IMG/VR virus record: IMGVR_UViG_3300017917_003066
DNA: 40,686 nucleotides
From: an uncultured virus (IMG/VR IMGVR_UViG_3300017917_003066)
Taxonomy: Duplodnaviria > Heunggongvirae > Uroviricota > Caudoviricetes
Reading direction: 5' to 3' (one strand)
How positions within the stretch are numbered: position 1 is the first letter of the stretch; each line of letters opens with the position of its first letter. A model generated the notes under the pieces. It was given only the letters and a program-made list of their open reading frames with translations. It was not told where the DNA came from and did no database searches. This document shows, one piece after another, positions 809-33,100 of this stretch. The translations under genes were made by a program, and so were the position numbers.

Positions 809-1336
809 CTATTTTTTATTATTAGACTTAATCATAACTAACCATCTACCACCTTCTAGCTTAGGTAATGATTCTGCTACTCCGAATCCATCTAAGTTAC
901 TAATGTATTTCAGAATAGTTAATTCACCTCTTTCGGGATTGGCTTTTTGTCTTCCTTTTAATTGAAGAACACATTTAATTTTATTACCTTCTTTTAGAAA
1001 TTCAATACTTTTTTTAACTTTTGTATTTAGATCATTATCTGATATTTCGGGACTAAGCTGAATTTCTTTTATTATAGATTTTATTGAGTTTTTCTTTTTC
1101 TCTTTTTCAGCCTTTTCAAAGTTATAAATAAACTTTTTATAATCTTCTATTTTTACAATAGGTGGATTTTGTGACTCATTAATTAGAATTAAGTCTAATC
1201 CTTCTGATTCTGCAATTTTTGAGGCTTCGTATGAACTCATTAATCTAGGTTCATCGTAAAAGCCGATTAGTCTAACTTGTGGAAAGCGAACTTCGCTGTT
1301 AATCTTGTGTTTCTGTCTATTTCTATTAGATTTCAT
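809..1336 (-). CDS. infC: Translation initiation factor IF-3 (phage-encoded)
   Basis: 175 aa with both IF3 domains: KINSEVRFPQVRLIG, EGLDLILI..QNPPIVKIEDY, KEIQLSPEISDNDLNTKVK..EFLKEGNKIK, KGRQ, PKLEGGR. Confidence 0.93.
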   Translation of the reverse strand: MKSNRNRQKHKINSEVRFPQVRLIGFYDEPRLMSSYEASKIAESEGLDLILINESQNPPIVKIEDYKKFIYNFEKAEKEKKKNSIKSIIKEIQLSPEISDNDLNTKVKKSIEFLKEGNKIKCVLQLKGRQKANPERGELTILKYISNLDGFGVAESLPKLEGGRWLVMIKSNNKK

Positions 1337-4051: not shown

Positions 4052-5482
4052 TTAAGCCATTTCTTCAATTTGAATTTCAACTTGAGCTCGTTCACGAACT
4101 TCCTCAAACGTCCATTCTTTCATGACTTTACCATTTAAGAATACTTCAACCAATTCGTCTCCATCTTCATCGTGTGAATGTTCAACGGTTTGACCATCTA
4201 CTAATTTCAAACGACCAGCTTTTGACTTTTTGAAAGATTGTACTCTTTCGCCTTTCTCGTTAATCTCAATTGGATTTTTACGAACTTCGGCTTCTTCACC
4301 GTTGATAGTGATAGAAGAACATTTGAAGGCAAATTTTTGAGTATCTCTGTCTACTTTTTGTAGAAGAGCACCACCCATTCCAAATGCGATGTTTTCAATT
4401 GAGAACCCTTCTTCAATCATCATATTACAGATATCTGAGATTGATTCATAATTAACACCATCACCTTGAATTACTCTAACGTGTGGGTCAAGTACCTTGA
4501 ACCCTTTGTCGTTAGTTGTTCCACCAAACTTATTCCATAAAATATGGAAGATTTGTTTTAGCGTTTGTACTGGATCACCTGAGTCAGGACGAATTACTAA
4601 ACGTCCGTCACGAGATAAGATTTTATCTCTTAAAGCTGTTCCCCAATAATCTCTACAAGCACGGATGATATCGAAAGAGTCAGATACACAAGCAACTAAG
4701 CCTGTAGGATAAGAATCTAACATATTTTCCATTGCTTTGACTTCGAATGGTTCGCCCCAAGAAGTCATTGTAGAATGCTCAGAAGCCGGAATTGAGAAAG
4801 CTAGTGGATTCTCAGTATTGTAGAACTCTTGAGCGAACAAGATAGCTGATACAGTGTCAGTTCCCATAAAGTTGATGATATGAGAAGAGCCACCTAAACC
4901 AGATGATTCTACAGAACTTACACCTCGGAAACCGAAATCATGTAACATGAAAGCTACTACACCACTAATTTCTTCTGGGTTGTAAGATGTTGTTTTTTTA
5001 AGATAGTTAATAAGATTTTTCTTAACTTCTCTTGAAAGAGTACCAACTGTAATTGGATACCAAACTTGTAGTAAGATACTTTCTAAGAAGTTAGTTAACC
5101 AAGGAACTTCTGGATCAGTGTTTTCAACTGTAACAAGAACGTTTCCTGTTTTAACCACTGTTCCTTCTGGAACTGCTTTTATGCGAACCGGTAAATATCC
5201 GTTGTGTTTATCTAGAATATGTCTCCAACCAGACTCATTGAATAAGCCAGGTCCTAAGTGAGCATCCCAAAGTTTTTTAGCTTGTTGAATTTTTTCTTCT
5301 GTTACGACTTGACCAGACAAATACTGTTTGATGAAGTATTGTAAACCATAGAACATAGTGTTGTTAAATTTACCACCTCTTGATTCAAGATAAGAGTAAA
5401 CTTTTGTAGATCCTTTCGGATACTGCTTCCAGTGTGTTGCTTTGTAACTGTCGGTCAGTGTTAAAATGTTATTATTATACAT
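4052..5482 (-). CDS. nadV: Nicotinamide phosphoribosyltransferase (NAMPT)
   Basis: TDSYKATHWKQYP, YSYLESRGG, LHDFGFRGVSS, SIPASEHS, VIRPDSGDP, VIQGDG, FGMGGALLQKVDRDTQKFAFK, KKSKAGRL. Confidence 0.97.
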   Translation of the reverse strand: MYNNNILTLTDSYKATHWKQYPKGSTKVYSYLESRGGKFNNTMFYGLQYFIKQYLSGQVVTEEKIQQAKKLWDAHLGPGLFNESGWRHILDKHNGYLPVRIKAVPEGTVVKTGNVLVTVENTDPEVPWLTNFLESILLQVWYPITVGTLSREVKKNLINYLKKTTSYNPEEISGVVAFMLHDFGFRGVSSVESSGLGGSSHIINFMGTDTVSAILFAQEFYNTENPLAFSIPASEHSTMTSWGEPFEVKAMENMLDSYPTGLVACVSDSFDIIRACRDYWGTALRDKILSRDGRLVIRPDSGDPVQTLKQIFHILWNKFGGTTNDKGFKVLDPHVRVIQGDGVNYESISDICNMMIEEGFSIENIAFGMGGALLQKVDRDTQKFAFKCSSITINGEEAEVRKNPIEINEKGERVQSFKKSKAGRLKLVDGQTVEHSHDEDGDELVEVFLNGKVMKEWTFEEVRERAQVEIQIEEMA

Positions 5483-5504
5483 AACTTATAGATTTATTAT
5501 TATA

Positions 5505-5536
5505 CAAATTTACGACTTTTTTATCAATCTATCAAA
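5505..5536 (-). promoter_or_regulatory. Bacteroidota-type primary sigma promoter for nadV
   Basis: Minus strand TTTG (5536-5533)-N20-TAAATTTG (5512-5505), matching the -33/-7 consensus TTTG-N19-21-TAnnTTTG. Confidence 0.7.
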
Positions 5537-6598
5537 ATATTCCACAAATATTTCGTGGTCTACTGATACAGAAATTCTCGATACATTCTTCAACTTTTCT
5601 TCAGTATTTTTGAATGTGAATTTATTCAAAGGAACACTTGAAATTTTAGCTGAAAGTAATTCATCAAATGTTTTATTGATGATAGCAAATGGTCCTGTTG
5701 GAATATCTGTATATTCATCAAATAACAAACCATTATCAGAAAGATATTGAATGTTCTTTGTGATGTGATGTTTTGTTTTCATTCTGTAATTATCAAAAGC
5801 CATCTGACCTTGGTTAGAAGTAAGAAGTTGATTGATAATCTCTTGTGGAACTGTTGAGATAGAGTTATACTTATACAAAGAACGAATCTTCATAGTATCA
5901 TATAATTCTTTATTCTTAGTAGCAATATAACCAATTCTCAATCCTGATAAACCAACTGATTTAGAGAATGAGGAAATAACAATTACGTTGTCTGAATAAA
6001 GTTCATAGATTTTATCAGACATTTCATTGAATAAGTAATAATAAGGTAAGTCTAAGATAAGAGTTTGATTTCTTTCTTTACAAATATCAGCAAATGCTTT
6101 TAAGTCTTCAAACTTAGGAGCATATCCTGTTGGATTTGATGGGTAACATAACATTACAACACCTTCACCAACTTCAGTATTTTTGATATCAAAATCATTA
6201 AATGTTTTGATTTCTTTACCGTGAATAGTAAGAATTTTATTCCAAGAGCCCCAGTGATATTTAGGTACCCAGAATGTTTTATCTGATAGTGAATTAATAA
6301 CAACATCTAATGTAGCCATTCCACCTGGAACGGTCATTACATAATGATTATTAAGATGAAACTTATCTTTTATAGTTTCAATAAGGTTAGCATCACCATC
6401 ATTACCACCATATTGTTGAATTTTCTTTTGATTGAAATCAATGTTTTGAGCAAATGAGTTCAAATCGATTGTTGTAACATCCATGACTCCACGATGAAGT
6501 TTAAGATATTTGTCACCAGTCTCTTTTTCTAGTTTTGCGGCTAATTCACCAATCTCAACGATTGACGAATAAGTTACAGGAGAAGTGTTTACGTTCAT
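5510..6598 (-). CDS. PLP-dependent aminotransferase, class I/II fold
   Basis: YPSNPTG, LILDLPY, SFSKSVGLSGLRIGY (Schiff-base Lys), C-terminal RISVS. Confidence 0.92.
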   Translation of the reverse strand: MNVNTSPVTYSSIVEIGELAAKLEKETGDKYLKLHRGVMDVTTIDLNSFAQNIDFNQKKIQQYGGNDGDANLIETIKDKFHLNNHYVMTVPGGMATLDVVINSLSDKTFWVPKYHWGSWNKILTIHGKEIKTFNDFDIKNTEVGEGVVMLCYPSNPTGYAPKFEDLKAFADICKERNQTLILDLPYYYLFNEMSDKIYELYSDNVIVISSFSKSVGLSGLRIGYIATKNKELYDTMKIRSLYKYNSISTVPQEIINQLLTSNQGQMAFDNYRMKTKHHITKNIQYLSDNGLLFDEYTDIPTGPFAIINKTFDELLSAKISSVPLNKFTFKNTEEKLKNVSRISVSVDHEIFVEYFDRLIKKS

Positions 6599-6604
6599 AT
6601 ATTT

Positions 6605-7504
6605 TTATTTTTTTAAATCTTCTAAAAACATTGTCATTAGAACTTTATGTTCTTTAACAATATCAACTTTTTCTAATTCAGACACATTAAACCATTTTAG
6701 TTCAGAAATATCATCTGATGGTTCTATTCTACCCCAACCTTTAGTTGTTTTGTAAAATATGGTCATTATTTTATCTTCCTCACTTTGATATCTCCAATCA
6801 GGTACTTGAACACTACCAATATATTTTAAATCAGTTATTGACAAGTTTCCACCAGCATCTTCGCTTACTTTTCTACGAGCGGTATGCTCATAACTAGTAT
6901 CTGTTGGTTTAGCAAAACCTCCGATAAATCTCCAAGCATCCTCGTATGGTCTTTTTGCTAAAAGTAGTTTATCATTTTCCATAATAGCAACATCAACACA
7001 TGGGTGTACTTTAGGATATTGATTATAAGATTGATAAATAACACCAGCTCTAAAATCAGTTGAGTCTTTAACCTCAGATGAAACCATCTTTCTAACTTCA
7101 GTACCTGATACAAAAGTATACTGGTCTAACTCTTGACAGTCAAATTGGCCACCACCATTTTTATAGTAAGGAATAAATGAGTCTCTACCACCATACATAA
7201 GAACATCACCAATTGGATAAACTTCTTTAATACGCTTGTCTAACTCATGTGACCATCTTTTATCATCACCAAAGTCCGGTAGAGCAAGAATAACAATTTC
7301 TGGATAATGATGTTGAATCATTTTTTTACGAGATTCAAAATCTAAAGGATTTTTCTTAGTACCAACAACTTTAGGAACGCCAAGAAAAAGAATAACTTTT
7401 TTATGATTTTTAACTACTTGGTCTATTAAGTAGTGATGAGCTTCATGTAGTTCATGAACTTGAAATCTACCAACTAAAGCTCCTATTGTATATGATTTAT
7501 CCAT
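6605..7504 (-). CDS. NMN adenylyltransferase-Nudix fusion (NadM-Nudix/NatV-like) with degenerate Nudix box
   Basis: VGRFQVHELHEAH, KNPLDFESRK, YGGRDSF, VSGTEVRK, DFRAGVIY, then a Nudix fold. Start revised to ATG 7504 because the track's TTG start lies inside the -7 promoter element. Confidence 0.9.
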   Translation of the reverse strand: MDKSYTIGALVGRFQVHELHEAHHYLIDQVVKNHKKVILFLGVPKVVGTKKNPLDFESRKKMIQHHYPEIVILALPDFGDDKRWSHELDKRIKEVYPIGDVLMYGGRDSFIPYYKNGGGQFDCQELDQYTFVSGTEVRKMVSSEVKDSTDFRAGVIYQSYNQYPKVHPCVDVAIMENDKLLLAKRPYEDAWRFIGGFAKPTDTSYEHTARRKVSEDAGGNLSITDLKYIGSVQVPDWRYQSEEDKIMTIFYKTTKGWGRIEPSDDISELKWFNVSELEKVDIVKEHKVLMTMFLEDLKK

Positions 7505-7522
7505 TATAATATAATTAGTATA

Positions 7523-7530
7523 CAAATATA
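7523..7530 (-). promoter_or_regulatory. Bacteroidota -7 promoter element upstream of the NAD cluster
   Basis: TATATTTG (TAnnTTTG) 18 nt upstream of ATG 7504; no clear -33 TTTG. Confidence 0.55.
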
Positions 7531-7901: not shown

Positions 7902-9035
7902 ATGATAAAAGGTTATAATGGTTTCTTATTACATCAATTAAAAGCTGAGTTATTTTCTTTATGTGAAGATAGTCTTTATGCATCAAGTGAACTTTTAGTA
8001 AAGTTAAAAAAGATGTCTAGTATGGAAGGCAAAGTAGGTGAGATTGCTACTGCAATTGTTGACACTATTGAAGATGAAAGTTGGTTGGATGATAAAGATA
8101 CTAAGCAAAACTTTTTTGATGTTACTGACAAAGAAGATACTATTTCTTTTTTACCATCAAACAAACTTCCAAAAGATTGGGATGAAGATGATGATCCATC
8201 GTTACCATATTCTACAGTTGGTAGAAGTGAAATAAAAATTGGAAGAATGGTAAGAGCTTTATTAAAAATTGCTGAAATATCTGATAAAGTGGACTCTTCT
8301 ATAAAAGATAAAGATTATGAAGAATTTGTAAATGTTTTCAAGTCACTTAAAATTGATACATCTAGAGAGTTTAAATTAGTTAATGGTGATGATATTCACA
8401 AATATTATCAAATGAAAAACTACTACTCATCACATGGTGCTTTAGGTGGATCTTGTATGGCGGATGAAGGAAAAGGAACATTTAAAGTTTATAGTGAAAA
8501 TCCAAAAAAAGTACAATTACTTGTTTTAATGGATGGTAATGGTAAGATTCATGGACGTGCCCTTGTTTGGAAATTAAAAGAATCTCCTTGTGAGTCTAAA
8601 TATTTTATGGATAGAGTTTATACAAACGCGGATTCTGATGTTATTAAGTTTAAAGCATTTGCTGAAGAAAAGGGATTTCTTTATAAACAAAAAAATAACA
8701 GTTATATTGAAGATAATGTTAAGTTCATGTATAAAGGTAAACCATTATTAGGAGAGGTTAAAGTAAAACTGGATGGTGATTTCAAAGAATATCCATTCAT
8801 CGATACTATGTGCTTCTTGAGTAAGAAACTTGGTGACCTATCAAATATACCTTCTAAAGATTGTTACTTTTTACATTCAGTTTCAGGTGATTGTGAAGTT
8901 TGTAACGACTGTGATGGTGAAATACTTGTTTATGATGATACGGAACTTTGTAATAGTTGTGGTTTAGGTATTGACGAATTAGAAAAGGCCGGTATCAAAA
9001 CTAAAATTGGTAAGAAAATAAAGGAAGATAATTGA
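7902..9035 (+). CDS. Conserved phage protein with SCM...GRALVW...FMDRVY motifs and a C-terminal CxxC-x12-CxxC zinc site
   Basis: Motifs visible in the translation (LGGSCM, IHGRALVWKL, YFMDRVYT, YPFIDTM, CNDC...CNSC); TATATA 5 nt upstream. Confidence 0.6.
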   Translation: MIKGYNGFLLHQLKAELFSLCEDSLYASSELLVKLKKMSSMEGKVGEIATAIVDTIEDESWLDDKDTKQNFFDVTDKEDTISFLPSNKLPKDWDEDDDPSLPYSTVGRSEIKIGRMVRALLKIAEISDKVDSSIKDKDYEEFVNVFKSLKIDTSREFKLVNGDDIHKYYQMKNYYSSHGALGGSCMADEGKGTFKVYSENPKKVQLLVLMDGNGKIHGRALVWKLKESPCESKYFMDRVYTNADSDVIKFKAFAEEKGFLYKQKNNSYIEDNVKFMYKGKPLLGEVKVKLDGDFKEYPFIDTMCFLSKKLGDLSNIPSKDCYFLHSVSGDCEVCNDCDGEILVYDDTELCNSCGLGIDELEKAGIKTKIGKKIKEDN

Positions 9036-9530
9036 TTATCTTCCCAAATAATTCATCAACTCAATCATATTCTTAATAGAGAATCCAAATGATTCTAAGT
9101 TTCTAACAGTTTCTCTTAAAAATTCTATATAAGATTCTATTAACTCAATACTTCTGTCATTTTCAGCGATATGACCATCTATAAGAATACCTTTTTCACC
9201 TAAGTTTGTTTTAATACCAAATCCGGTTGCATAAAATACAAACTTTTCTTGTCTAAGTTTTTTAATCTTAGTTGTTTCTTTACTTCTTTTGTTTAAGAAA
9301 AAGTTAATCTGCTCATTTATTTGTTGTCTAAATGTAAGAGCAACAGATTGAGCGTCTAATAAACTTCTTGAATTTGATGGATTACTTAAATCAACTGATA
9401 AAACTTTGAATAAAGGTTCAACATTTTTATTCCACTCGGCTCTTTTATCGTTAAAGAACTCTTCCATTTTATCGTTAGTTTCTTTAGCTTTTGTTATTCT
9501 GTCTATTTCTTCTTGATTATAAAGATTCAT
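9036..9530 (-). CDS. UvsY-like recombination mediator
   Basis: All-helical 164 aa; KKLRQEKFVFYATG...EKGILIDG...IEFLRETVRNLESFGFSIKNMIELMNYLG resembles the T4 UvsY C-terminus. Confidence 0.65.
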   Translation of the reverse strand: MNLYNQEEIDRITKAKETNDKMEEFFNDKRAEWNKNVEPLFKVLSVDLSNPSNSRSLLDAQSVALTFRQQINEQINFFLNKRSKETTKIKKLRQEKFVFYATGFGIKTNLGEKGILIDGHIAENDRSIELIESYIEFLRETVRNLESFGFSIKNMIELMNYLGR

Positions 9531-9957
9531 TGTCTGGTAATATTTTTTTCATTTGATATGTTCTATATAAATTTTTATTATAACAAGAACTTAAAGATTT
9601 TTCTATAATATTTGTTGTTTTTTCTGAAATATTTCTATTTATATATTCTTCTAAAATAGAACTCCATTTTTCTACCAAAGTTTTATCTTCATAAATTATA
9701 TTTTCAGATCCATGCTCATATGTAATTTCTATACAGCTGTTTCTATTATCAATTACTATGTCAATAGATTCTGACATTCTGAATGATCTTAATCGACCAT
9801 AAGACTGATTATTGTTATCTTCTTCTTCTGGCTTTTCATCAATACTGAAAGAAACATAATAATATCTATACCCATATTTCATTTTTTTATATATGTCAAT
9901 TCTTTCATCAGATTCATTCTCTAATAAGAATTGTAAAAATTCATCAATTTCTTTCAT
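9517..9957 (-). CDS. Hypothetical protein
   Basis: 146 aa ORF overlapping the uvsY-like start. Confidence 0.6.
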   Translation of the reverse strand: MKEIDEFLQFLLENESDERIDIYKKMKYGYRYYYVSFSIDEKPEEEDNNNQSYGRLRSFRMSESIDIVIDNRNSCIEITYEHGSENIIYEDKTLVEKWSSILEEYINRNISEKTTNIIEKSLSSCYNKNLYRTYQMKKILPDNESL

Positions 9958-10052
9958 CTTCGATTATTCTTTTTATTTTAAAGTATCTAATATTACTTTA
10001 AGTTCGTTCATATTACTTTTATAAAAAAAGATATTATTTGTTTTTATTGCAT

Positions 10053-10080
10053 AAAAAAACCTCCCTATTTGGGAGGTTTT
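10053..10080 (-). terminator. Rho-independent terminator
   Basis: Minus strand AAAACCTCCC-AAATA-GGGAGGTTTTTTT just after the 10097 stop. Confidence 0.85.
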
Positions 10081-10096
10081 ATATTTTTATTATCTT

Positions 10097-10723
10097 TTAT
10101 TGAAAATCTTCAAAACCTTTTATTTTTGATGGCATTTCATCCTCAATTTCATTTGGTTCTTCAGAAGTATATTCCTCTTCTGATTCTTCATTTCCAACTT
10201 CTTCAACTTCTTCATCGTTAAAATCTTCTTCATCTTCTGAGTAAAATTCTTCACCTTCGGGTGAATTATGACCTGCTAAAAAGTCAAACACTTGCTCTAA
10301 ATTTTCAGTAGCAACTGAAATATGATCAGAAGCCCAATCATGTTCGGTTAAAATCGAATCTATTTTACTATGATCCATATTCATTAATTCATCGATTAAT
10401 CTTTTCATAGTTTCTAAGTTACCAAAAAACATATAGTTAGAATGTTCTTTGTGTTCTTTTAATGAACCTAAAGTTTTAGCTAGGTTAAGTCGTCTGAATT
10501 TAGTTAAGTCTTTTTTAGAAAGACCTTGAACTCCTTTTTTACTAGAGTCTTTATCTTTACCTTTTAATTTAGATAATTCAGCATTAATCTCTGATTTAGA
10601 GATTTTATCACCTTCTTCTTTGCCCATAGATTTCTTCAAAGCACCTGGGTTTTTTATAGCATCTTGAATCCATTTGTCTCCTTTTGCTTCTTCGTTAAAT
10701 GAACTAAATGATTTAATACTCAT
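10097..10723 (-). CDS. Putative head-internal multi-module protein
   Basis: Leader MSIKSFSSFNEE; basic module KWIQDAIKNPGALKKSMG...RLNLAKTL; helical module NYMFFGNLE...HDWASDHIS...QVFDFL; acidic tail. Confidence 0.6.
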   Translation of the reverse strand: MSIKSFSSFNEEAKGDKWIQDAIKNPGALKKSMGKEEGDKISKSEINAELSKLKGKDKDSSKKGVQGLSKKDLTKFRRLNLAKTLGSLKEHKEHSNYMFFGNLETMKRLIDELMNMDHSKIDSILTEHDWASDHISVATENLEQVFDFLAGHNSPEGEEFYSEDEEDFNDEEVEEVGNEESEEEYTSEEPNEIEDEMPSKIKGFEDFQ

Positions 10724-10783
10724 AATCAGTTTTTAATTTTTTAATTTTTATGTTAATTATATATTAAATTATAATATCGTTTT

Positions 10784-11938
10784 TTATTTTAACACGGTGA
10801 CTACCTCTGGATAGTATTTTCCAATCTCTGGATTTTTGTCATCATAGTCTATTGCGTTGATAACATATCTCATAGCGTTTAGTCTTCCTATCTTTTTATC
10901 ATTTGAGTTTATTATAACCCAAGGTGACATCCTACTGGAAGTTTTTGAGAACATTTGATTTTTGAAATTACCTATAATTTCCCATTTGTCTAAAACTTTA
11001 GCATCATTTGGTGAAAATTTCCAATATTTAAGAGGACTTTTTTGTCTAAGTTCAAATCTTTTGATTTGTTTTTCTTGTGTTATTGAGAACCAAAATTTAA
11101 TTAAGATTAGACCATTTGATATTAGACTTTCTTCCCAATCTATTACTTTATTCATGAAATCATTATATTGTTCTTCTGTGCAATAACCCATAGCAGGTTC
11201 TACAACAGCTCTATTATACCAACTTCTATCAAAGAAAACTATTTCTCCTGGTTTTGGTAGATGTTTCTCATATCTTTGAAACCAGTTTTTCTTTTCTTCT
11301 TCTGTTGGTAAACCAAGTGCTACAACTTTGAAGCCTTTAGGATTTAAGTATTCTGTAAATCTTTTAATAGTTGAACCTTTTCCAGCGGCATCTCTACCCT
11401 CAAATACTATAGCTACTCTTTTGCCATTTTTAGCGGCCCATTCTTGTAGTTTAAGTAGCTCTATTTGAATTTGATATTTTTCAGATTCATATTGTTTTCT
11501 AGGTAATATAGATCCTTCACCACCTGGTATCTCAAATTGTTCAGAATTTCCACTTCCAGATACTTTTATATTGGATACTCTATCATCTATCGATCTATAA
11601 TATTCATCAAAAGATTCTCTTACTTTTCTTTTTGTATTTCTTTTTCTTAAATCTAATATTTGATTTAATTTTCTTAAAAATGTTTCAACATTCAACTCTT
11701 TAACAAAGTCTTCTGTGTACTCATTTATTAATTCTCTCATTATAACTTTTATGTCAACTCTATCAAAGTTTTTATATTCTACTTTATTAGTTTTTAAGTT
11801 ATATTCAATATTAGCTAATATATAAGTTCTATATTCGCTTAATCTAAATTTGAAATTATCAACTGTTGCTTTTAGAGTTTTTTCATCTAAGTCAGATATA
11901 CTAACTTCTTCATTAAATTTGTTAAAATTAAGAATCAT
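10784..11938 (-). CDS. ppk2: Polyphosphate kinase 2 (class I-like) with ~135 aa N-terminal extension
   Basis: Walker A IVFEGRDAAGKGSTIKR, WFQRYEKHLP..GEIVFFDRSWYNRAVVE, LKYWKFSPND, PWVIINSNDKK..RLN. Confidence 0.95.
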   Translation of the reverse strand: MILNFNKFNEEVSISDLDEKTLKATVDNFKFRLSEYRTYILANIEYNLKTNKVEYKNFDRVDIKVIMRELINEYTEDFVKELNVETFLRKLNQILDLRKRNTKRKVRESFDEYYRSIDDRVSNIKVSGSGNSEQFEIPGGEGSILPRKQYESEKYQIQIELLKLQEWAAKNGKRVAIVFEGRDAAGKGSTIKRFTEYLNPKGFKVVALGLPTEEEKKNWFQRYEKHLPKPGEIVFFDRSWYNRAVVEPAMGYCTEEQYNDFMNKVIDWEESLISNGLILIKFWFSITQEKQIKRFELRQKSPLKYWKFSPNDAKVLDKWEIIGNFKNQMFSKTSSRMSPWVIINSNDKKIGRLNAMRYVINAIDYDDKNPEIGKYYPEVVTVLK

Positions 11939-11980
11939 AAAATGTTCTATTTTTATGTATATATAAAATATCTAAAAACA

Positions 11981-12004
11981 AAAAACCCACTTAAAAGTGG
12001 GTTT
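11981..12004 (-). terminator. Rho-independent terminator
   Basis: AAACCCACT-TAAA-AGTGGGTTT hairpin with a minus-strand T tract after the WYL gene. Confidence 0.8.
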
Positions 12005-12023
12005 AATATTAATTTTCTATTAA

Positions 12024-12926
12024 TTAGACTTTCTTATCAAAAAGATAAAGATCGTATATAGCATTTCCTTTTACTTTCTTAATATTCTTTAAAACTTGAC
12101 CGGTAGTTGAGTCTAATACTTTATAAACTCCAATATTTATACCTTTATCATCTAAAACTTTAACTGTGTTGCCTGGTTGTCCTAACGCGCCTAAAACAGC
12201 AATATATTTGTTTCCATAGATACTTTTTAAGAACGAAACTTTAGCTGTTGCTATGTCTTTAATATTATTAACATAAGCATTATCTAAAGGATTATTTAAA
12301 TCTAGAACAGTTCCAGTATTTTTTGTTCTTATAGTAACTGACTTTCTTTCTTCATCACCTAAAGTAACTTCTTCTCTATTTTGTATTTTATTCTGACTAA
12401 CTAATGCTTGTTGATTTCTTCTAATTTCATTAAAATCAGCACGAGCTATATAACCACCTCTCATACCTTTATCGTTCATATTATAACCAACTGGCGCTAG
12501 TCTATAAAATGAACCTGTGAAAGTCATTGATAGTATTCTATCTGTTCTGAATAATCTCCATATTTTTTCAGTGTGTCTTTTTTGAGAAACAGACCAACCA
12601 TTTAAGTGCCAAGCTCTTAAAAGAACCTTTCCTTTTGAAGACCTTCCCAGAACCATTGGATATACTGCTCTTTCATGACCAGCAAAGTGATTGTCTTCTT
12701 CACCTTTATAGTTAATAAGAAATATCATACCATACTTAATAGCTTTAATCATTGTCTGATCCGAGTATTTAATAGGTTCGTTTATTGGAATATTAGCAAT
12801 ATCTTTTACATTTTTTAATGTAAATTTAGAAACATACTCTTTGTCCTCTACTAATTCGTAGTTCTCACGAATAACAAACTCAACGGGTTTCTTATTATAG
12901 TAATCTTTTAATTGAGACAAATTCAT
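12024..12926 (-). CDS. WYL-domain protein without HTH
   Basis: AIKYGMIFLINY...ERAVYPMVLG...LLRAWHL...WRLFRTDRILSM matches the WYL pattern. Confidence 0.75.
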   Translation of the reverse strand: MNLSQLKDYYNKKPVEFVIRENYELVEDKEYVSKFTLKNVKDIANIPINEPIKYSDQTMIKAIKYGMIFLINYKGEEDNHFAGHERAVYPMVLGRSSKGKVLLRAWHLNGWSVSQKRHTEKIWRLFRTDRILSMTFTGSFYRLAPVGYNMNDKGMRGGYIARADFNEIRRNQQALVSQNKIQNREEVTLGDEERKSVTIRTKNTGTVLDLNNPLDNAYVNNIKDIATAKVSFLKSIYGNKYIAVLGALGQPGNTVKVLDDKGINIGVYKVLDSTTGQVLKNIKKVKGNAIYDLYLFDKKV

Positions 12927-12951
12927 AAGGTATATATTAAATTGTACCCAC

Positions 12952-13674
12952 CTATTTTAATCTTTCTATCGTTAAGTCTATTGCTCTTTGATTTATGTCA
13001 CAACCTATAAATCTTCTATTTAAGTTTCTACAAGAAACGGCAGTTGTTCCACTTCCTAAATAAAAATCACCAACTAAGTCATTTTCATCTGATGAGGATT
13101 TAATAATTCTTTCAACAAGTGAAAGAGGCTTTTGAGTATCATATCCTACTCTTTCTTTTTTATCATTTTGTCCAAGTATATTTATTTGCCAAACATCACC
13201 AATTACTTTTCCTTCTGGATGATAATATTTTTCTTTTTCATATCCTCTAGGTGCTGTTTCTGAGTAGGGTTCTCTTGGTGGATTGAATTTATAATTATCT
13301 GTTTTAGTATATCTTAAAATAACATCATGTCTTTTACCAAAATCCAATTTTTTTCTTGGAGCGGTGTTATAATACCATATAATTTCATTTCTCATTTTAT
13401 CATATCCAAAAATATCATCCATTATACATCTAATCCAATGATTAATCTTAGTATCCATTTGAAGATAAATAGTTCCTGTGTCTTTAAGAATACGATGCAT
13501 TTCTTTTATTCTTGGAATATAATGTTGTTCGATATCTGACTTAATAGGTTTTAAGTCTTGATAATCAGAAAATTTACGACCAGTTCCGTATAATATATCA
13601 GAATAGATAAGATCAATTGATTTATCTTCAATTGATTTCATGAAATCTAAATTATCTTGACATTCTATTCTCAT
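12952..13674 (-). CDS. N6-adenine/N4-cytosine DNA methyltransferase (beta order) with atypical DILY motif IV
   Basis: IDLIYSDILYGTG, RILKDTGTIY, NEIIWYY, DVWQI, YDTQKPLSLVERII, DFYLGSGTT, RRFIGCDIN. Confidence 0.88.
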   Translation of the reverse strand: MRIECQDNLDFMKSIEDKSIDLIYSDILYGTGRKFSDYQDLKPIKSDIEQHYIPRIKEMHRILKDTGTIYLQMDTKINHWIRCIMDDIFGYDKMRNEIIWYYNTAPRKKLDFGKRHDVILRYTKTDNYKFNPPREPYSETAPRGYEKEKYYHPEGKVIGDVWQINILGQNDKKERVGYDTQKPLSLVERIIKSSSDENDLVGDFYLGSGTTAVSCRNLNRRFIGCDINQRAIDLTIERLK

Positions 13675-13710
13675 ATAAATTTTATTATTAATTATGAATT
13701 TGTTTAAAAC

Positions 13711-13738
13711 AAAAAGAGAGACTGAAAAGTCTCTCTTT
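13711..13738 (-). terminator. Rho-independent terminator
   Basis: AAAGAGAGACT-GAAA-AGTCTCTCTTT just after the lipoprotein stop. Confidence 0.88.
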
Positions 13739-13756
13739 AATCTAACTATTTTTTAC

Positions 13757-13936
13757 TTACTTAACAACAGTAGCAGTGTCAACTGCTGAACCACAAGAAT
13801 CACAAGTGGTAGTTGTTGAGTCAACAGCAGTTGCTGTTGAATCTGTAGTAGATGTTTCTGTTTTTTCTGCTCCGCTGTTACAAGAAGCTAAGAAAATTGT
13901 TGCCGATGCTAAAAGCACAAAAGCGATTTTTTTCAT
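13757..13936 (-). CDS. Small lipoprotein (59 aa, SPII signal)
   Basis: From ATG 13936: MKKIAFVLLASATIFLAS-C lipobox, then a Thr/Ser/Asp-rich mature part. Confidence 0.85.
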   Translation of the reverse strand: MKKIAFVLLASATIFLASCNSGAEKTETSTTDSTATAVDSTTTTCDSCGSAVDTATVVK

Positions 13937-14056
13937 AATTGTTTGTTTTTTTGTTTTTTTGATTTTGTATCGAATATTATATATCAAAATTAAATTATGT
14001 TGTTTTGAAAATTAGAAAAAAAAATTTAATATATAAATAAACATTAAAAACAATAT

Positions 14057-14371
14057 ATGAAGCATATTAAAAAGTTTGAAGGCTTTGATTTTGGTCAGAC
14101 ATTACCTGTTACAACTCAAAATGTTTTAACAAATTTTTATAGTTGTGATGACTGTGATGCTTTATGGAGAGAATTTAATGAGACATCTAAAACTTGTAAA
14201 TACTGTGGTTCTGATGAAGTTGAAGACCTTGGTGAGGATGAATGGTATGAAATAGTTAAAACTAGACTTGAAGAAGATGAAATTGAGGATTTAGAATCTG
14301 AGAGAAAAAAACAAAGTGAAACTTTTATAGATATTCTTTCACTAAAAAATAAAAATAACTATGGCAATTAA
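14057..14371 (+). CDS. Zinc-ribbon protein with MKHIKKFE leader
   Basis: YSCDDCD...TCKYCGS; upstream TATATA. Confidence 0.7.
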   Translation: MKHIKKFEGFDFGQTLPVTTQNVLTNFYSCDDCDALWREFNETSKTCKYCGSDEVEDLGEDEWYEIVKTRLEEDEIEDLESERKKQSETFIDILSLKNKNNYGN

Positions 14372-15071
14372 TAATAGAGAAGACGCTAATAGATACTACC
14401 AAATTGTTAATGAATTAGTTGATGATTATTTAGATAAGTGGAAAATTAGACCTTCTAATCTTAAAAGATATTTACAACCAGGCTCTGAAAGATTTAATAA
14501 GTTTCTAGAAAGAAATAAACTAAAAGATATTAAAGGCGCTGAAAGAATACTTCAAGATGTCATAGAAGATAGATATCACATGGAGAAAGATGGTGTTATT
14601 ACATTTGAGTCATTTAAAATGTTTGAATCTGAAGAATTCAAAATTCACTCTATGAAACAATGTTTATACAAAGGAATTGAAAAGGCTAATCAAAAAATGG
14701 AAAAAATTCTAGCTGACCATTTTGATACTAATTTAGGTGATATTGATATAGTTGATTCTGACAAACACATATTTAAAATAAATGATTGGAATAATCAAGA
14801 CGTTGAAGTTGTTATTTACTCAAAAGAAGAAATGGATATTATTTTAACTAATGTTGTTGATCATTTATATGAAGAACTTTCTAAAAAGAAAATTGAACTA
14901 ACTCAACATATATCAATTGAGTTAACAGATTTAATTAAAAAAGAAGCATTCACTGATAGATTTGAATATATTTTAACAGATGATATGGCTAAAAAGCTAA
15001 TTAGTGATTGTTTAGATGACAACTTTAAATTCAAAGATGAGTTTAATGGTTATTTTATTTGGATTTCTTAA
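14361..15071 (+). CDS. Hypothetical protein (internal VITFESFKMFES leader-like motif)
   Basis: 236 aa ORF overlapping the upstream gene. Confidence 0.6.
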   Translation: MAINNREDANRYYQIVNELVDDYLDKWKIRPSNLKRYLQPGSERFNKFLERNKLKDIKGAERILQDVIEDRYHMEKDGVITFESFKMFESEEFKIHSMKQCLYKGIEKANQKMEKILADHFDTNLGDIDIVDSDKHIFKINDWNNQDVEVVIYSKEEMDIILTNVVDHLYEELSKKKIELTQHISIELTDLIKKEAFTDRFEYILTDDMAKKLISDCLDDNFKFKDEFNGYFIWIS

Positions 15072-15178: not shown

Positions 15179-16012
15179 ATGTTATTAAAAGTTGGTTCAA
15201 AAGGAGAAGATGTTAAAAAGCTTCAAGAAAAATTAGGTCTATCATCAGATGGTAGTTTTGGTCCTGGTACTGAAAAAGCTGTTAAAAATTGGCAGTCAGC
15301 TAATGGTTTAACTGCTGATGGTATTGTTGGTCCTGGTACGTGGAGTAAAATGTTTGATGGTAGTTCTGCACCGTCACCTGCACCTGTATCTAATGTTGTT
15401 ATTCCACCTAGTGAATTTAAATTAGAAAAATTAAAAGGTCATATACCAGATTCTGTTATAGCTCAAATCCCTGAGACTGCTGCTAAATTTAATATAACTA
15501 ATGTTTTAAGACTTGCTCACTTTTTAGCTCAATGTGGTCACGAATCAGGTGGATTTAAAGCAGTTTCCGAAAACTTAAATTATTCAGCAAAAGGATTATT
15601 AGGAATTTTCCCTAAGTATTTCAATGCTACAACAGCGGCTCAATATGAAAGAAAACCAGAAATGATTGCTTCTAGAGTTTACGGAAGTAGAATGGGTAAT
15701 GGTGATGAATCTACAAAAGAAGGTTTTAAATTTAGAGGTAGAGGTTATATTCAATTGACCGGAAAATCAAACTATGCTGGTTTTGCTAAATTTATTGGAG
15801 AAGATACAGTTGCTAATCCTGATTTAGTTGCATCTAAATATCCATTAGCTTCAGCTGCTTTTTTCTTTAATAATAATAAACTATGGTCAATTTGTGATAG
15901 AGGTGCGGATGATGCTACAGTAACTGCTGTGACTAAAAGAGTTAATGGTGGTACTATAGGTCTGTCTGATCGTATCAAACACTTTAGAGAGTACTATGAA
16001 TTATTAAAATAA
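15179..16012 (+). CDS. Modular endolysin: PG_binding_1 domain plus GH19 muramidase
   Basis: LKVGSKGEDVKKLQ..LG...DGSFGPGTEKAV..WQ..NGLTADGIVGPGTW; AHFLAQCGHESGGF..ENLNYS, FRGRGYIQLTGK, TKRVNGG. Confidence 0.93.
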   Translation: MLLKVGSKGEDVKKLQEKLGLSSDGSFGPGTEKAVKNWQSANGLTADGIVGPGTWSKMFDGSSAPSPAPVSNVVIPPSEFKLEKLKGHIPDSVIAQIPETAAKFNITNVLRLAHFLAQCGHESGGFKAVSENLNYSAKGLLGIFPKYFNATTAAQYERKPEMIASRVYGSRMGNGDESTKEGFKFRGRGYIQLTGKSNYAGFAKFIGEDTVANPDLVASKYPLASAAFFFNNNKLWSICDRGADDATVTAVTKRVNGGTIGLSDRIKHFREYYELLK

Positions 16013-27168: not shown

Positions 27169-30100
27169 ATGGGATTTTCATCAGCTGAGGTTAATAAACT
27201 CACCTTTAAAGTACAAGCCGGAAATGTTATAGATGCTTCATCAGGTAAATATTGGTATGAATCAGTATTTCCTTATAATCCGGCATTATTGTCAAATAGA
27301 GTTCTTACTCAGTTTGAACAAGTTAAATTAAACCCCGCTTCAAACTTAGCAGCTGCACAAGCAGCAGCAGCAGCAATACCTACAATATTAGAAGATAGAT
27401 CTACATCATCTGTTAGACTAACACAGGCTGTTTCAGGTGAGAATAATACTTGGGTTTCTTATAATACATACAACACACCTTCTTCGGGCTTACTAGACCT
27501 TTGGATTCAACCACAAAGAGTTCCACAGGCTAATGGTTTGCCAAGTTCTGGTTATGAAATTGCTTTATATAGTGGAAATCCAGCTTCTGGTGGTGTTTAT
27601 ATTTCAACAACTATTGGTCAATCTGGTGGTGAAGTTGGTTGGGTTTTTAACTATGATATGGGTTTGCTTTTTTTAGCAAATGATTTAATCACAACTATAC
27701 AAAGTAACCCATCTACATATCCAGCTGGTTTAGATTTTTATATAAGAGGTTTTAGATATATTGGTCAAACTTTGGCTGATGGTGCTTTAAGTGCTTTTGG
27801 TACAAGTAGTACAATAGGTTATACACAAAGTGGTGTAACATATTCATTTTATGTAAATCAAGGTAGTTTAACGGCTTCTTTATTAAATACCGGAACAAAT
27901 GGTGGTGCTACTGCTGGTTATTTATTATCAGTTGATAATGATGGTAACTTTGTTTGGTCTAATTTAGGATCTTCCGGATCTTCTGGTACATCAGGATCAA
28001 GCGGAACATCAGGAACAAGTGGTACAAGTGGATCAGATGGCTCAAGTGGTACTTCAGGATCAAGTGGTACGAGTGGATCAGATGGCTCAAGTGGAACATC
28101 TGGTTCAGATGGATCATCAGGAACTTCAGGATCTAGCGGATCTTCAGGATCTAGCGGATCTTCAGGATCAAGTGGTACAAGTGGATCAGATGGATCATCA
28201 GGAACTTCAGGCTCAGATGGATCATCAGGAACTTCAGGCTCAGATGGATCATCAGGAACTTCAGGATCAAGTGGTACGAGTGGATCAGATGGCTCAAGTG
28301 GAACATCTGGTTCAGATGGATCATCAGGAACTTCAGGATCTGACGGATCAAGCGGTACAAGTGGATCTGATGGCTCAAGCGGTACAAGCGGCACAAGTGG
28401 TACTTCAGGATCATCTGGATCAGATGGCTCAAGTGGAACATCAGGATCAAGTGGTACAAGTGGTACTTCAGGATCATCAGGATCAGATGGATCATCAGGA
28501 ACTTCAGGCTCAGATGGCTCAAGTGGAACATCTGGCTCAGATGGATCATCAGGAACTTCCGGATCAAGTGGTACAAGCGGATCTGATGGCTCAAGTGGTA
28601 CGTCAGGATCAAGTGGTACATCCGGATCATCAGGATCAAGTGGCTCTGATGGATCAAGCGGTACATCTGGATCAAGTGGTACATCCGGAACATCAGGATC
28701 TTCAGGCTCAAGTGGATCGAGCGGAACATCCGGCTCATCCGGTTCAAGTGGATCATCAGGATCAAGTGGTACAAGCGGATCAGATGGCTCAAGTGGATCA
28801 TCAGGAACTTCAGGATCAGATGGCTCAAGTGGTACAAGCGGATCAGATGGATCAAGCGGTACGAGTGGTTCAGATGGATCATCAGGAACCTCAGGATCTA
28901 GTGGTACGAGTGGTTCAGATGGATCATCAGGAACTTCAGGATCGAGTGGTACAAGCGGATCTGATGGTTCAAGTGGTACAAGTGGATCATCAGGAACTTC
29001 AGGATCAGATGGATCATCAGGAACTTCAGGATCGAGTGGTACAAGCGGATCTGATGGTTCAAGTGGTACAAGCGGAAAAAGAGGAACAATTTGGTTTGAA
29101 GGTTCTGGATTTCCCAGTTCAACCCCAGGTGCTCAAGAAGGTGACTTGTATCTCGATTTAGATACTGGAGATGTTTGGGTTTATTCAGGATCTATTTGGG
29201 GATTAATAGGTAATATAAAAGGATCAGATGGATCAAGTGGTACGTCAGGATCAAGTGGTACATCCGGATCATCAGGATCAAGTGGTTCTGATGGATCAAG
29301 CGGTACGTCTGGATCAAGCGGTACATCCGGATCATCAGGATCAAGTGGTACATCTGGATCAAGTGGTACAAGCGGATCAAGCGGATCTTCCGGCTCATCT
29401 GGTACATCCGGCTCATCAGGATTCGACGGTATAAATGGTGTTGATGGTACATCTGGTACATCAGGATCATCCGGATCAAGTGGTACATCAGGATCATCCG
29501 GATCAAGTGGATCAAGTGGCACAAGCGGATTAAGCGGATCAAGTGGTACATCTGGATCAAGCGGTTCTAGTGGAACATCAGGATCATCTGGCTCTAGTGG
29601 AACATCAGGATCATCCGGATCAAGTGGATCAAGTGGATCAAGTGGCACAAGCGGATCAAGCGGATCAAGTGGAACATCAGGATCAAGTGGATCAAGTGGT
29701 ACATCAGGTTCTTCTGGTTCTAGCGGATCTTCTGGATCAAGTGGTACAAGTGGATCATCAGGAACGTCAGGCTCAGATGGAACATCAGGAACTTCAGGAT
29801 CAAGTGGATCAAGTGGAACATCTGGATCAAGCGGTTCTAGTGGCTCTAGTGGAACATCAGGTTCATCTGGTTCTAGTGGTACATCTGGATCAAGCGGTTC
29901 TAGTGGCTCTAGTGGAACATCAGGATCATCTGGCTCAAGTGGATCTTCTGGATCAAGTGGATCTTCAGGTACAAGCGGATCATCTGGTTCTTCAGGTTCA
30001 AGTGGAACATCTGGTTCTTCTGGCTCAAGTGGTACATCTGGCTCAAGTGGATCAAGTGGTACATCTGGCTCAAGTGGATCAAGTGGTACATCAGGATCAA

Positions 30101-33100
30101 GTGGATCAAGTGGTACATCTGGATCAAGCGGTTCTAGTGGCTCTAGTGGAACATCAGGATCATCTGGCACATCTGGATCAAGCGGTTCTTCAGGATCAAG
30201 TGGTACATCAGGTTCTTCAGGATCAAGTGGTACATCAGGTTCTTCTGGCTCAAGTGGTACATCTGGTTCTTCTGGCTCAAGTGGAACTTCTGGTACATCA
30301 GGATCAAGTGGATCAAGTGGTACATCTGGATCAAGTGGATCAAGTGGTACATCTGGTTATTCAGGTCTTGATGGTACAAGTGGAACTTCCGGTTCTAGTG
30401 GAACTTCTGGAACTTCTGGAACTTCTGGCTCAAGTGGAACATCAGGATCAAGTGGATCAAGTGGTACATCAGGATCAAGCGGATCAAGTGGTACATCTGG
30501 TTCTTCTGGATCAAGCGGAACATCAGGATCAAGCGGTTCATCAGGATCTTCGGGTACATCCGGTTCAAGTGGAACATCCGGTTCTAGTGGTTCATCAGGA
30601 TCTTCGGGTACATCCGGTTCAAGTGGATCAAGTGGATCATCAGGATCTTCGGGAACATCAGGATCATCAGGATCAAGTGGATCAAGTGGTACATCAGGAT
30701 CTTCCGGATCAAGCGGTTCATCAGGATCAAGCGGATCTTCAGGCACAAGCGGTTCATCAGGATCTTCAGGATCAAGTGGATCTTCAGGCACAAGCGGTTC
30801 ATCAGGATCTTCCGGTTCTAGTGGATCTTCGGGTACATCAGGATTATCCGGATCAAGTGGTACATCTGGTACAAGTGGATCAAGTGGTAGCTCAGGGTCA
30901 AGTGGATCATCTGGTTCATCAGGTTCAAGTGGATCATCTGGTACATCTGGTTCAAGCGGTTCAAGTGGAACATCCGGCTCTAGCGGTTCATCTGGAACTT
31001 CAGGATCAAGTGGATCATCAGGTACATCTGGTTCAAGCGGTTCAAGTGGTACATCGGGTTCTAGTGGTTCTAGTGGAAGTAGTGGTACTTCAGGATCAAG
31101 TGGATCATCGGGAACATCAGGGTCAAGTGGTAGTAGCGGAACAAGTGGTTCATCAGGCACTAGTGGAACGTCAGGCTCATCTGGATCAAGTGGTTCAAGC
31201 GGTTCAAGTGGTACATCGGGTTCTAGTGGTTCTAGTGGAAGTAGTGGTACTTCAGGTACATCCGGCTCTAGTGGTTCATCTGGATCAAGTGGAACATCCG
31301 GATCAAGTGGTTCGTCAGGATCAAGCGGTACAAGTGGATCATCAGGATCAAGTGGTACAAGTGGATCATCAGGATCAAGTGGTACAAGTGGATCATCAGG
31401 ATCAAGTGGATCAAGTGGATCATCAGGATCAAGTGGTACAAGTGGATCATCAGGATCAAGTGGATCAAGTGGATCAAGTGGATCATCAGGATCTTCGGGT
31501 ACATCCGGATCAAGTGGTTCAAGTGGAACATCCGGTTCTTCAGGATCAAGTGGATCATCTGGTAGCTCAGGATCTAGTGGTACATCAGGATCTTCTGGAT
31601 CAAGTGGAACATCCGGCTCAAGCGGTACGTCTGGATCAAGCGGTTCTTCAGGTACATCCGGTTCTAGTGGCTCATCTGGATCAAGCGGTTCTTCAGGTAC
31701 ATCCGGTTCAAGTGGTTCAAGTGGCTCATCAGGAACTTCAGGTTCTAGCGGATCTTCAGGTTCAAGTGGTACATCTGGATCAAGTGGAACTTCAGGTTCA
31801 AGTGGTTCTAGCGGATCTTCAGGTTCAAGTGGTTCTAGCGGATCTTCAGGTTCAAGTGGTACGTCTGGATCAAGTGGAACTTCAGGTTCAAGTGGTTCTA
31901 GCGGATCTTCAGGTTCAAGTGGTACATCTGGATCAAGCGGCTCAAGTGGTACATCAGGTTCAAGCGGTTCATCAGGTACATCTGGATCAAGTGGTTCAAG
32001 TGGCTCATCTGGATCAAGCGGTACATCCGGTACATCCGGATCTTCGGGTACATCCGGTTCTAGTGGATCATCTGGTACATCAGGATCAAGCGGTTCATCC
32101 GGATCAAGTGGTTCAAGTGGTAGCTCAGGTTCAAGTGGTTCTTCGGGTACATCCGGATCAAGTGGTTCAAGTGGATCATCTGGTACATCAGGATCAAGTG
32201 GTACATCCGGATCTAGTGGAACATCTGGATTATCTGGATCTTCAGGTACATCGGGTTCAAGTGGTTCTTCGGGTACATCTGGATCAAGTGGTTCATCTGG
32301 ATCAAGTGGATCAAGTGGATCAAGTGGAACATCTGGATCAAGTGGATCATCCGGCTCTAGCGGATCTTCTGGATCAAGCGGTTCATCAGGTACATCTGGA
32401 TCAAGTGGAACATCAGGCTCATCCGGATCAAGTGGATCAAGTGGAACATCAGGTTCAAGTGGAACATCTGGATCATCCGGATCAAGCGGATCTTCAGGGT
32501 CAAGTGGCTCATCTGGTACATCCGGATCAAGCGGCTCATCTGGTACATCCGGATCAAGTGGCTCATCCGGATCAAGTGGAACATCAGGTTCATCTGGATC
32601 AAGTGGATCAAGTGGATCAAGTGGAACATCTGGATCAAGTGGATCGAGTGGAACATCAGGCTCAAGTGGAACATCTGGATCAAGTGGATCAAGTGGATCA
32701 AGTGGAACATCTGGATCAAGTGGATCAAGTGGAACATCAGGCTCAAGTGGAACATCTGGATCAAGTGGATCAAGTGGCTCATCTGGTACATCAGGTAGCT
32801 CAGGATCAAGTGGTACATCAGGATCAAGTGGATCTTCAGGAACATCTGGTTCTTCTGGATCAAGTGGCACATCTGGATCAAGTGGATCTTCAGGTACAAG
32901 CGGTTCATCCGGATCAAGTGGTACATCAGGTAGTTCAGGATCTAGTGGATCTTCTGGTACATCAGGATCAAGTGGTTCATCTGGATCAAGTGGATCAAGT
33001 GGAACATCAGGATCAAGTGGTACGAGAGGAACTTCAGGAACAAGCGGATCAAGTGGAACATCTGGCTCATCAGGATCAAGTGGATCAAGTGGTACATCCG

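Follow-up and report, generated by a model that had tools for sequence, protein, structure and literature searches.

A predicted late-expressed class I polyphosphate kinase 2 with a phage-only accessory domain and an N-terminal tag resembling the T4 capsid-targeting sequence in a Mahaphage-type phage

The stretch of DNA analysed here (hereafter the window; 40,686 nucleotides (nt) from the uncultured virus IMG/VR IMGVR_UViG_3300017917_003066, Caudoviricetes) encodes a class I polyphosphate kinase 2 (PPK2) whose catalytic core is preceded by a short N-terminal tag, a helical accessory domain (N-domain) and a linker. Among the sequences searched, the N-domain was found in phage-like sequences only. 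The tag is portable between unrelated proteins and resembles the capsid-targeting sequence (CTS) of phage T4, and late expression of the gene is well supported by the ATATATA element that precedes it. An earlier note on this DNA had described a PPK2 with a capsid-targeting-like leader and had proposed that it is made late, packaged in the virion and injected into the next host; the observation holds, with corrections. One of these concerns its extent. The note's span, 10784..11965, does hold a single open reading frame (ORF) starting MILNFNKFNEE, but the ORF covers only 10784..11938, and the rest of the span takes in the promoter-like motif upstream. The gene and its parts are as follows:

10784..11938, minus strand: whole PPK2 ORF, 384 residues plus stop codon, comprising tag, N-domain, linker and PPK2 core
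11906..11938, minus strand: tag, residues 1-11 (MILNFNKFNEE), unstructured, of the aromatic-x-x-aromatic...E class
11552..11905, minus strand: N-domain, residues 12-129, helical, with one beta-hairpin and a basic patch
11501..11551, minus strand: linker, residues 130-146, flexible and acidic, with variable alignment columns and a predicted local distance difference test score (pLDDT) of about 40
10787..11500, minus strand: class I PPK2 catalytic domain, residues 147-384, assigned by profile and PDB matches
11958..11965, minus strand: TATATATA (core ATATATA), late-promoter-like element 26 nt 5' of the ATG

The gene is best assigned to a Mahaphage-type huge phage with Bacteroidota-like hosts. 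The window is AT-rich phage DNA (G+C 35.7%), and the phage records closest to it come from uncultured huge phages: LR745206 (635 kb), LR756502 (642 kb) and LR756501/LR756503 (735 kb). Genomes above 634 kb have been described as the "Mahaphage" clade, with Bacteroidetes as the predicted hosts (PMC7162821). The PPK2 of LR745206 is 70% identical to that of the window. Genome-wide counts given below for this relative refer to the whole record and its 920 ORFs, which come from a crude caller and include some wrong starts, that of its own PPK2 among them.

That the PPK2 core is intact, as the earlier note stated, is borne out by both profiles and motifs. Pfam PF03976 (PPK2) matches residues 147-369 with an E value of 1e-80 (271 bits against a cut-off of 22.3), and the stretches G181-S189 (GRDAAGKGS), D237-R238-S239 (within DRSWYNR) and W306-D312 (WKFSPND), which are the P-loop or Walker A motif (GxxxxGK), the Walker B-like DRS and the lid stretch, are invariant in 16-18 relatives and align with the PDB chain 5LLB. 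The protein has a single catalytic domain. It passes the NCBIfam equivalog TIGR03707 (316.2 bits against a cut-off of 301.8) and stays below the cut-offs of the two-domain and AMP-type (class II, class III-type) models (211.9 vs 547.65, 149.4 vs 247.2 and 109 vs 450), in agreement with the class I assignment made earlier. The best PDB relatives are the Francisella tularensis PPK2 chains 5LLB, 5LL0 and 4YEG, which we take to be class I enzymes (E about 3e-81; residues 145-373 on chain residues 24-253). The likeness lies in the single PPK2 domain with its conserved P-loop, DRS and lid; the difference lies ahead of the core, where the solved Francisella chain has about 23 residues whereas the phage protein has 146. 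These comparisons identify the catalytic domain as an intact class I PPK2, predicted to act as a polyphosphate:NDP phosphotransferase. A PADLOC search assigned the PPK2 to no family.

The residues ahead of the core were modelled with AlphaFold2 both by themselves (residues 1-146, 31 sequences, pLDDT 85.1) and as part of the full-length protein (18 sequences, pLDDT 80.2, predicted template modelling score 0.82). In both models residues 1-10 are unstructured (pLDDT 47-49) and residues from about 13 to 129 fold confidently into a helical domain that contains a single hairpin (pLDDT 82-97), followed by a low-confidence linker at 130-146. The single leader of about 135 residues proposed earlier therefore has to be replaced, since the models split the 146 residues before the core into an 11-residue tag, a folded domain and a linker. 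A conserved basic patch, K99 R100 N101 T102 K103 R107, marks the folded domain.

Searching with residues 1-146 gave 406 protein matches at E <=0.001; the 120 of these that were listed all carry PF03976 and are about 384 residues long. An exhaustive search of 1.84 billion representatives gave 66 matches to the N-domain, which also exists alone, outside PPK2 fusions, as complete proteins of 116-125 residues on contigs of 3-44 kb. Other arrangements occur as well: the protein P0172 has an additional domain ahead of the N-domain, and in P0125 the N-domain is fused to a protein of the type encoded by orf208, the downstream neighbour of the PPK2 gene. Phage records searched with the N-domain by tblastn contain fused genes only, and a metagenome scan of 60 loci gave 51 fused forms, 7 cut ORFs and 2 others. 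Scans of viral contigs with three of the stand-alone proteins (P0140, P0137 and P0152) found no relative, and an alignment of the N-domain itself contains no block of sufficient conservation to serve as a query. The N-domain has no match at E <=0.001 in PDB or BFVD by Foldseek and no usable match in the ESM Atlas; VIA-align wide gave generic helical bundles only (best Z 7.6), and Pfam at E values up to 10 gave only noise.

The extension is also missing from cellular genomes, as far as these were scanned with one genome per species: residues 1-146 found no relative there, and with the full-length alignment 78 of the 80 best loci start their match at residue 131 or later. Two loci are exceptions. 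L080 is an ordinary PPK2 of 277 residues whose extension match is spurious; L081, a PPK2 of 360 residues, has an extension of another kind and sits on a phage-like contig of 4.7 kb. The best cellular PPK2s (<=62% identity; Bacteroidota, Verrucomicrobiota and Marinimicrobia assemblies) align to the core only. In these scans cellular PPK2s thus lack the extension, which decides one of the checks set by the earlier note in its favour, and on the same scans a cellular origin of the extension is rejected. That it arose as an artefact, through a wrongly chosen start codon or a chance fusion in one contig, is also extremely improbable. The general risk of taking the longest ORF is all that speaks for such an artefact, and it is refuted by the 406 homologues, by an N-terminal part that is about as conserved as the core, and by the promoter motif standing immediately 5' of the same ATG.

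The first 11 residues are one instance of a class of N-terminal peptides seen across the proteome of the relative LR745206. Residues F5, F8, N9, E10 and E11 are invariant in 16 relatives of the PPK2. We defined a strict tag pattern (M, 2-6 residues, aromatic-x-x-aromatic, with Glu within three residues), and it is found at the start of 72 of the 920 ORFs of LR745206, against about 12 expected from internal positions; an aromatic pair within the first 14 residues is present in 155 of the 920. The tags occur in three registers, MIKK(Y/W/F)NQFIxE, M(I/K)(I/L)KKYxxF(I/L)xE and MK(Y/H)(L/I)Kx(Y/F)(K/E)(I/L)FES. After removal of the first 20 residues, the 72 tagged proteins fall into 64 BLAST clusters, which indicates that the tag is portable and rejects the possibility that its bearers are one paralogue family. 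The tag keeps its extreme N-terminal place even where domains have been inserted, as with the front domain of P0172 and with orf208 homologues that have a Cys-rich insert behind the tag. Two further features go with it in LR745206: ATATATA lies upstream of 40 of the 72 tagged ORFs vs 216 of the 848 others (odds ratio 3.7, p 3e-7), and [IL]xE at residues 7-15 is present in 44 of 72 vs 99 of 848.

In the window, the ORFs at 2618, 10097 and 10784 (PPK2) carry the strict tag, and those at 3613, 7902 and 14057 a loose one. Unrelated window ORFs (starts 2618, 3197, 3613, 7902, 10097 and 14057) share this type of start peptide, for example MIKNWNQFIREF, MKHLQKFEGF, MKHIKKFEGF and MSIKSFSSFNEE. No Pfam family was found in 58 of the 71 tagged proteins of LR745206 that were scanned; those with a family include a GH108 lysozyme-type domain and a methyltransferase, among others. 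The tagged set also contains a fusion of a 2H-phosphoesterase, weakly similar to Acb1, with an RNase T-type exonuclease (448257-449573), a SMODS-associated Nudix protein (340824-341435), an Rnl1-type RNA ligase (470485-471747) and a poly(A)/CCA-polymerase head domain of a CCA-adding-type nucleotidyltransferase (516201-517373). These four are candidate counter-defence or RNA-repair enzymes. As the tag stands on about 8% of the ORFs of a relative, it does not mark out PPK2 as special.

The promoter-like element noted earlier upstream of PPK2 is present: TATATATA lies on the coding strand 26 nt before the ATG (plus-strand positions 11958-11965). Fourteen of the 19 ATATATA hits in the window lie 11-74 nt 5' of ORF starts in the correct orientation, and the intergenic count is 10 vs 2.95 +/- 1.80 in 500 dinucleotide shuffles (shuffle maximum 10). 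The window ORFs behind the element include the tail-fibre genes at 23249, 27169 and 35137, the endolysin at 15179, orf300 (the upstream neighbour of PPK2), PPK2 itself (26 nt) and orf208. In LR745206 it lies within 80 nt upstream of 256 of the 920 ORFs, the distances clustering sharply around 11-12 nt (95 sites) and 26-31 nt (70 sites), and among the genes behind it are those for terminase, portal, head maturation protease, major head protein, a head closure protein and a baseplate wedge protein. A gp55-like late sigma factor is encoded in the same region of LR745206 (phrog_234, E 1.9e-7). The element precedes PPK2 in all seven named loci (window, LR745206, LR756502, LR756501, L001, L002 and L003) and in 34 of 39 distinct metagenome N-termini. 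In T4, late promoters have the sequence TATAAATA and are read by gp55 (PMC1524935). The likeness consists in a short AT-rich element of the -10 type ahead of virion genes, as in T4-type late promoters, which need no -35 element, together with the gp55 homologue in the relative. On these sequence grounds the role of ATATATA as this group's late promoter, the counterpart of the gp55-dependent TATAAATA, is well supported. Since the element precedes the head genes of LR745206 and PPK2 across loci, late expression of PPK2 is likewise well supported, and PPK2 would be made together with the virion proteins.

The NAD genes of the window belong to a different promoter class, as the earlier note had implied in calling PPK2 late and those genes early. 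TAnnTTTG, which we take to be the Bacteroidetes -7 element, lies 12-40 nt upstream of NAMPT (4052), NMNAT-Nudix (6605), the RlaP-type nucleotidyltransferase gene and two others. The suggestion that PPK2 would supply ATP for NMNAT fits poorly for this reason. In many cases a gap of only 4-5 nt separates ATATATA from the ATG, both in the window (2607, 7890, 12937, 16892, 23238 and 27158) and genome-wide in LR745206, and TAnnTTTG has a similar distance peak at 12-13. These near-ATG peaks suggest that many mRNAs may start at or beside the start codon.

A possible link between the tag and T4-type head assembly comes from the head protease of the relatives. The T4 CTS, MKTYQEFIAE, is cleaved at a single place by the head protease (PMC8442874). 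In T4 every internal head protein enters the core via such a targeting sequence, and cleavage by gp21 follows Glu residues, as with ITE-6 and LTE-619 in Alt (PMC5694885). The first 11 residues of PPK2 do resemble this sequence, which upholds the capsid-targeting likeness proposed earlier. In LR745206 the head protease ORF (198546-200669) encodes a 707-residue fusion of protease and scaffold (phrog_207, E 4e-30; PF03420, E 1.1e-4, under the cut-off). Its middle part consists of 10 regular 14-residue repeats, NIxYSEY(I/L)AEN(L/V)DK, with one related unit before them and an acidic stretch after them. LR756502, LR756501 and LR756504 have 10-12 such repeats each and LR756500 has degenerate ones. 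The more remote tblastn hits fall mostly in Synechococcus/Prochlorococcus phage and cyanophage records; the match in 121Q-type phages covers genes annotated as protease and as scaffolding protein.

The repeat core, Y-x-E-Y-(I/L)-A-E, has the same pattern as the tags and the T4 CTS. Among 547 proteins, [FYW]xx[FYW][ILV]xE starts at residues 2-9 in 21, vs 0, 2, 0, 1 and 2 in five internal control windows. A profile built from the scaffold repeats only was tried as a tag finder and proved too narrow. With the CTS of the T4 internal proteins IPI-III, which gp21 removes, the tags share a length of about 10 N-terminal residues, the pattern aromatic-x-x-aromatic-(I)-x-E and their occurrence on unrelated proteins; counterparts of the gp21-type protease and the gp55-type late sigma factor are known from relatives. 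These phages differ from T4 in that the scaffold is fused to the protease and made of 14-residue repeats of the tag pattern, and in that the tag stands on at least 72 ORFs with mostly acidic and in some cases enzymatic products. Ejection or inner-body proteins of phiKZ and SPN3US are likewise many, include enzymes (virion RNA polymerase) and are cut after Glu by a gp21-like protease, but their sites are S/A/G-x-E or A-x-E, their propeptides are longer, and the proteins listed in the passages considered here do not include a PPK2 (PMC5694885).

The PPK2 gene is flanked by two conserved neighbours and several terminator-like hairpins:

11983..12004, minus strand: hairpin with T-run, intrinsic-terminator-like, between the upstream orf300 and the ATATATA motif
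12024..12926, minus strand: orf300, conserved upstream gene, preceded at 11 nt from its ATG by an ATATATA of its own; weak WYL-like signals
10097..10723, minus strand: orf208, downstream neighbour, with N-terminal tag MSIKSFSSFNEE, conserved core, acidic tail and C-terminal IKGFEDFQ
10056..10080, minus strand: two-way hairpin, listed on the plus strand, with a palindromic stem

The hairpin at 10056..10080 probably ends a PPK2-orf208 transcription unit. A terminator isolating PPK2 from the upstream gene had also been proposed: a hairpin with T-run is indeed present at 12004-11983 between that gene and the motif, but by eye, and with no scan run, it was not seen in the 120 nt 5' of PPK2 in LR745206, L001, L002 and L003. 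Region 9000-14500 contains 8 terminator-like sites vs 1.0 expected. As for the neighbours themselves, orf300, the one kept most constantly beside PPK2, gives three weak WYL signals (Pfam E 0.096; PADLOC E 0.0022; an Atlas neighbour cluster with WYL in 15% of its members), located at about residues 58-140, and it may be a ligand-sensing partner. The basic module of orf208 (residues 16-90) resembles the VP2 virion proteins of fuselloviruses weakly and under the cut-off (E 0.019), and its C-terminal IK(G/S)Fx(D/N)F, a look-alike of the tag (IKGFEDFQ in the window), is found in 20 of 22 relatives.

Elsewhere the window encodes a piece of a family B DNA polymerase, a full-length IF3 homologue with IF3_N and IF3_C domains (809-1336, minus strand), a UvsY-like protein, a DNA methylase and an endolysin. 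NAMPT and the NMNAT-Nudix fusion form, with a class I/II aminotransferase-like gene, a NAD-salvage block (4052-7525, minus strand) with TAnnTTTG-type promoters. The collagen-repeat tail-fibre-like genes reach 2611 residues (27169-35004, plus strand), and one of at least 1850 residues runs off the window (35137-40686, plus strand); their G+C-rich repeats produce long spurious ORFs in other frames.

How might the tag and the late timing work together? By analogy with T4 we propose that the tag would be a T4-type CTS, a short helix of the form aromatic-x-x-aromatic-(I/L)-x-E, imitating a single repeat of the protease-scaffold. The tagged PPK2 would co-assemble with the prohead scaffold core, and a gp21-type head protease would clip the tag after Glu. 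The basic mature PPK2 (isoelectric point (pI) 9.2) would be retained in the head and would enter the next cell with the DNA, where it could make ATP/GTP from host polyphosphate ahead of phage gene expression. The enzyme assignment and the late timing are far more secure than this chain as a whole. That the tag is a T4-type CTS is moderately supported by the likeness, and the whole chain, from late PPK2 through packaging, we consider tentative, at a little less than an even chance; packaging of PPK2 in the virion is about as tentative. Several observations weigh against it. Packaging and injection of PPK2 are argued by analogy only, and the scaffold, protease and sigma factor were read in genomes of relatives and not in the window's own. 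The tag patterns were composed after the motif had been seen, and the ORF caller mis-starts some genes. Between about 8% (strict pattern) and 15% (loose pattern) of ORFs bear the tag, which would make the cargo far richer in species than that of T4. Internal proteins of T4 are basic, and the tagged proteins tend to be more acidic than the untagged ones (median pI 4.96 vs 5.54). The window's tag reads F-N-E(E) where the family consensus is FINEE, so that F, and not the I/L of the T4 (L/I)-x-E site, stands three residues before the presumed cut, and 10 of 39 distinct PPK2 N-termini have no aromatic pair. The scaffold-repeat profile separates N-termini from controls weakly (5 vs 0 and 1 at threshold 4, p 0.007) and scores the PPK2 N-terminus at -14.6 (rank 95 of 547), under an internal segment (-9.0). 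Finally, the tag is enriched behind promoters only in the 8-16 nt class, in which ATATATA ends 4-5 nt from the ATG (31/72 vs 84/848); the 21-40 nt class, which holds the head genes and this PPK2, has no such enrichment (9/72 vs 99/848).

Several of these observations would fit a PPK2 that acts late in the cytoplasm of the producing cell and is not virion cargo, turning host polyphosphate into ATP/GTP for the packaging of a genome of about 0.6 Mb and for late translation. The tag would then have another job, such as aiding the translation of late mRNAs whose 5' ends lie on or close to the AUG, or the recruitment of a chaperone or assembly factor. Such a role, to which we give rather less than an even chance, agrees with the late-type promoter, with a tag that is so frequent and enriched only close to the ATG, with the acidity of the tagged proteins, with the PPK2 N-terminus being missed by the scaffold-repeat profile, and with tagged enzymes that could work in the cytoplasm (the Rnl1-type RNA ligase, the CCA-adding-type nucleotidyltransferase and the methyltransferase). 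Moreover, viral ppk2 has already been reported as an auxiliary metabolic gene (PMC13188868). However, Y, W and F are all used at the aromatic position (7, 6 and 5 cases in one register), a sign that selection acts on the peptide and not on the RNA; the tag pattern equals both the T4 CTS and the scaffold repeat, ending in (I/L)-x-E; and since PPK2 belongs to the 26-nt class, a role with leaderless mRNAs would leave the conservation of its tag unexplained. The extension could also serve mainly in docking or regulation, with the helical N-domain binding the acidic orf208 and perhaps the WYL-like orf300, so that the three genes would form a polyphosphate module. This is rather unlikely as the main role; alternatively, the basic patch at residues 99-107 could bind polyphosphate or nucleic acid. 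Docking is compatible with either packaging or a cytoplasmic role. The N-domain may dock orf208: orf300 is present in at least 48 and orf208 in at least 32 of the 60 metagenome loci holding the N-domain (lower bounds, as many loci are short), the linkage orf300-PPK2-orf208 is kept in six rearranged loci (L125, L129, L132, L158, L160 and L161), the P0125 fusion and the stand-alone N-domain proteins described above are in line with it, and the pI values are opposite (9.05 for the N-domain, 4.63 for orf208). No fold or family match points to a function of the N-domain, which speaks against this assignment. Between packaging and a purely cytoplasmic late role the evidence is about evenly divided, neither quite reaching an even chance.

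Literature searches, which covered search listings and the papers cited here, turned up neither a virion-borne nor a tagged PPK2, nor such a tag system in these phages; the word "polyphosphate" is absent from the main text of PMC7162821. The viral ppk2 auxiliary metabolic genes reported before share with the present one a phage-borne PPK2, and the portion of that report considered here describes no tag, extra domain, late timing or packaging (PMC13188868). Even without packaging, a late polyphosphate-to-NTP enzyme with a phage-only accessory domain appears undescribed, as do its two conserved partner genes and the late-promoter role read here for ATATATA in these phages.

Should the tag serve to load proteins into the head, the largest phages known would carry a big and varied enzyme cargo that includes an energy-regenerating kinase. 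It is possible, though somewhat doubtful, that Mahaphage-type phages load dozens of enzymes into their heads via an 11-residue tag that copies the scaffold repeat and stands on about one ORF in twelve; the cargo would comprise PPK2, the Acb1-like phosphodiesterase-exonuclease, the SMODS-associated Nudix protein, the RNA ligase and the CCA-adding-type enzyme, a scaled-up form of the T4 principle. Were this true, a simple sequence rule would predict the virion cargo of uncultured phages, and the view of early infection and counter-defence in these phages would change: an injected PPK2 would turn the polyphosphate of the new host into ATP/GTP before any phage gene is read.

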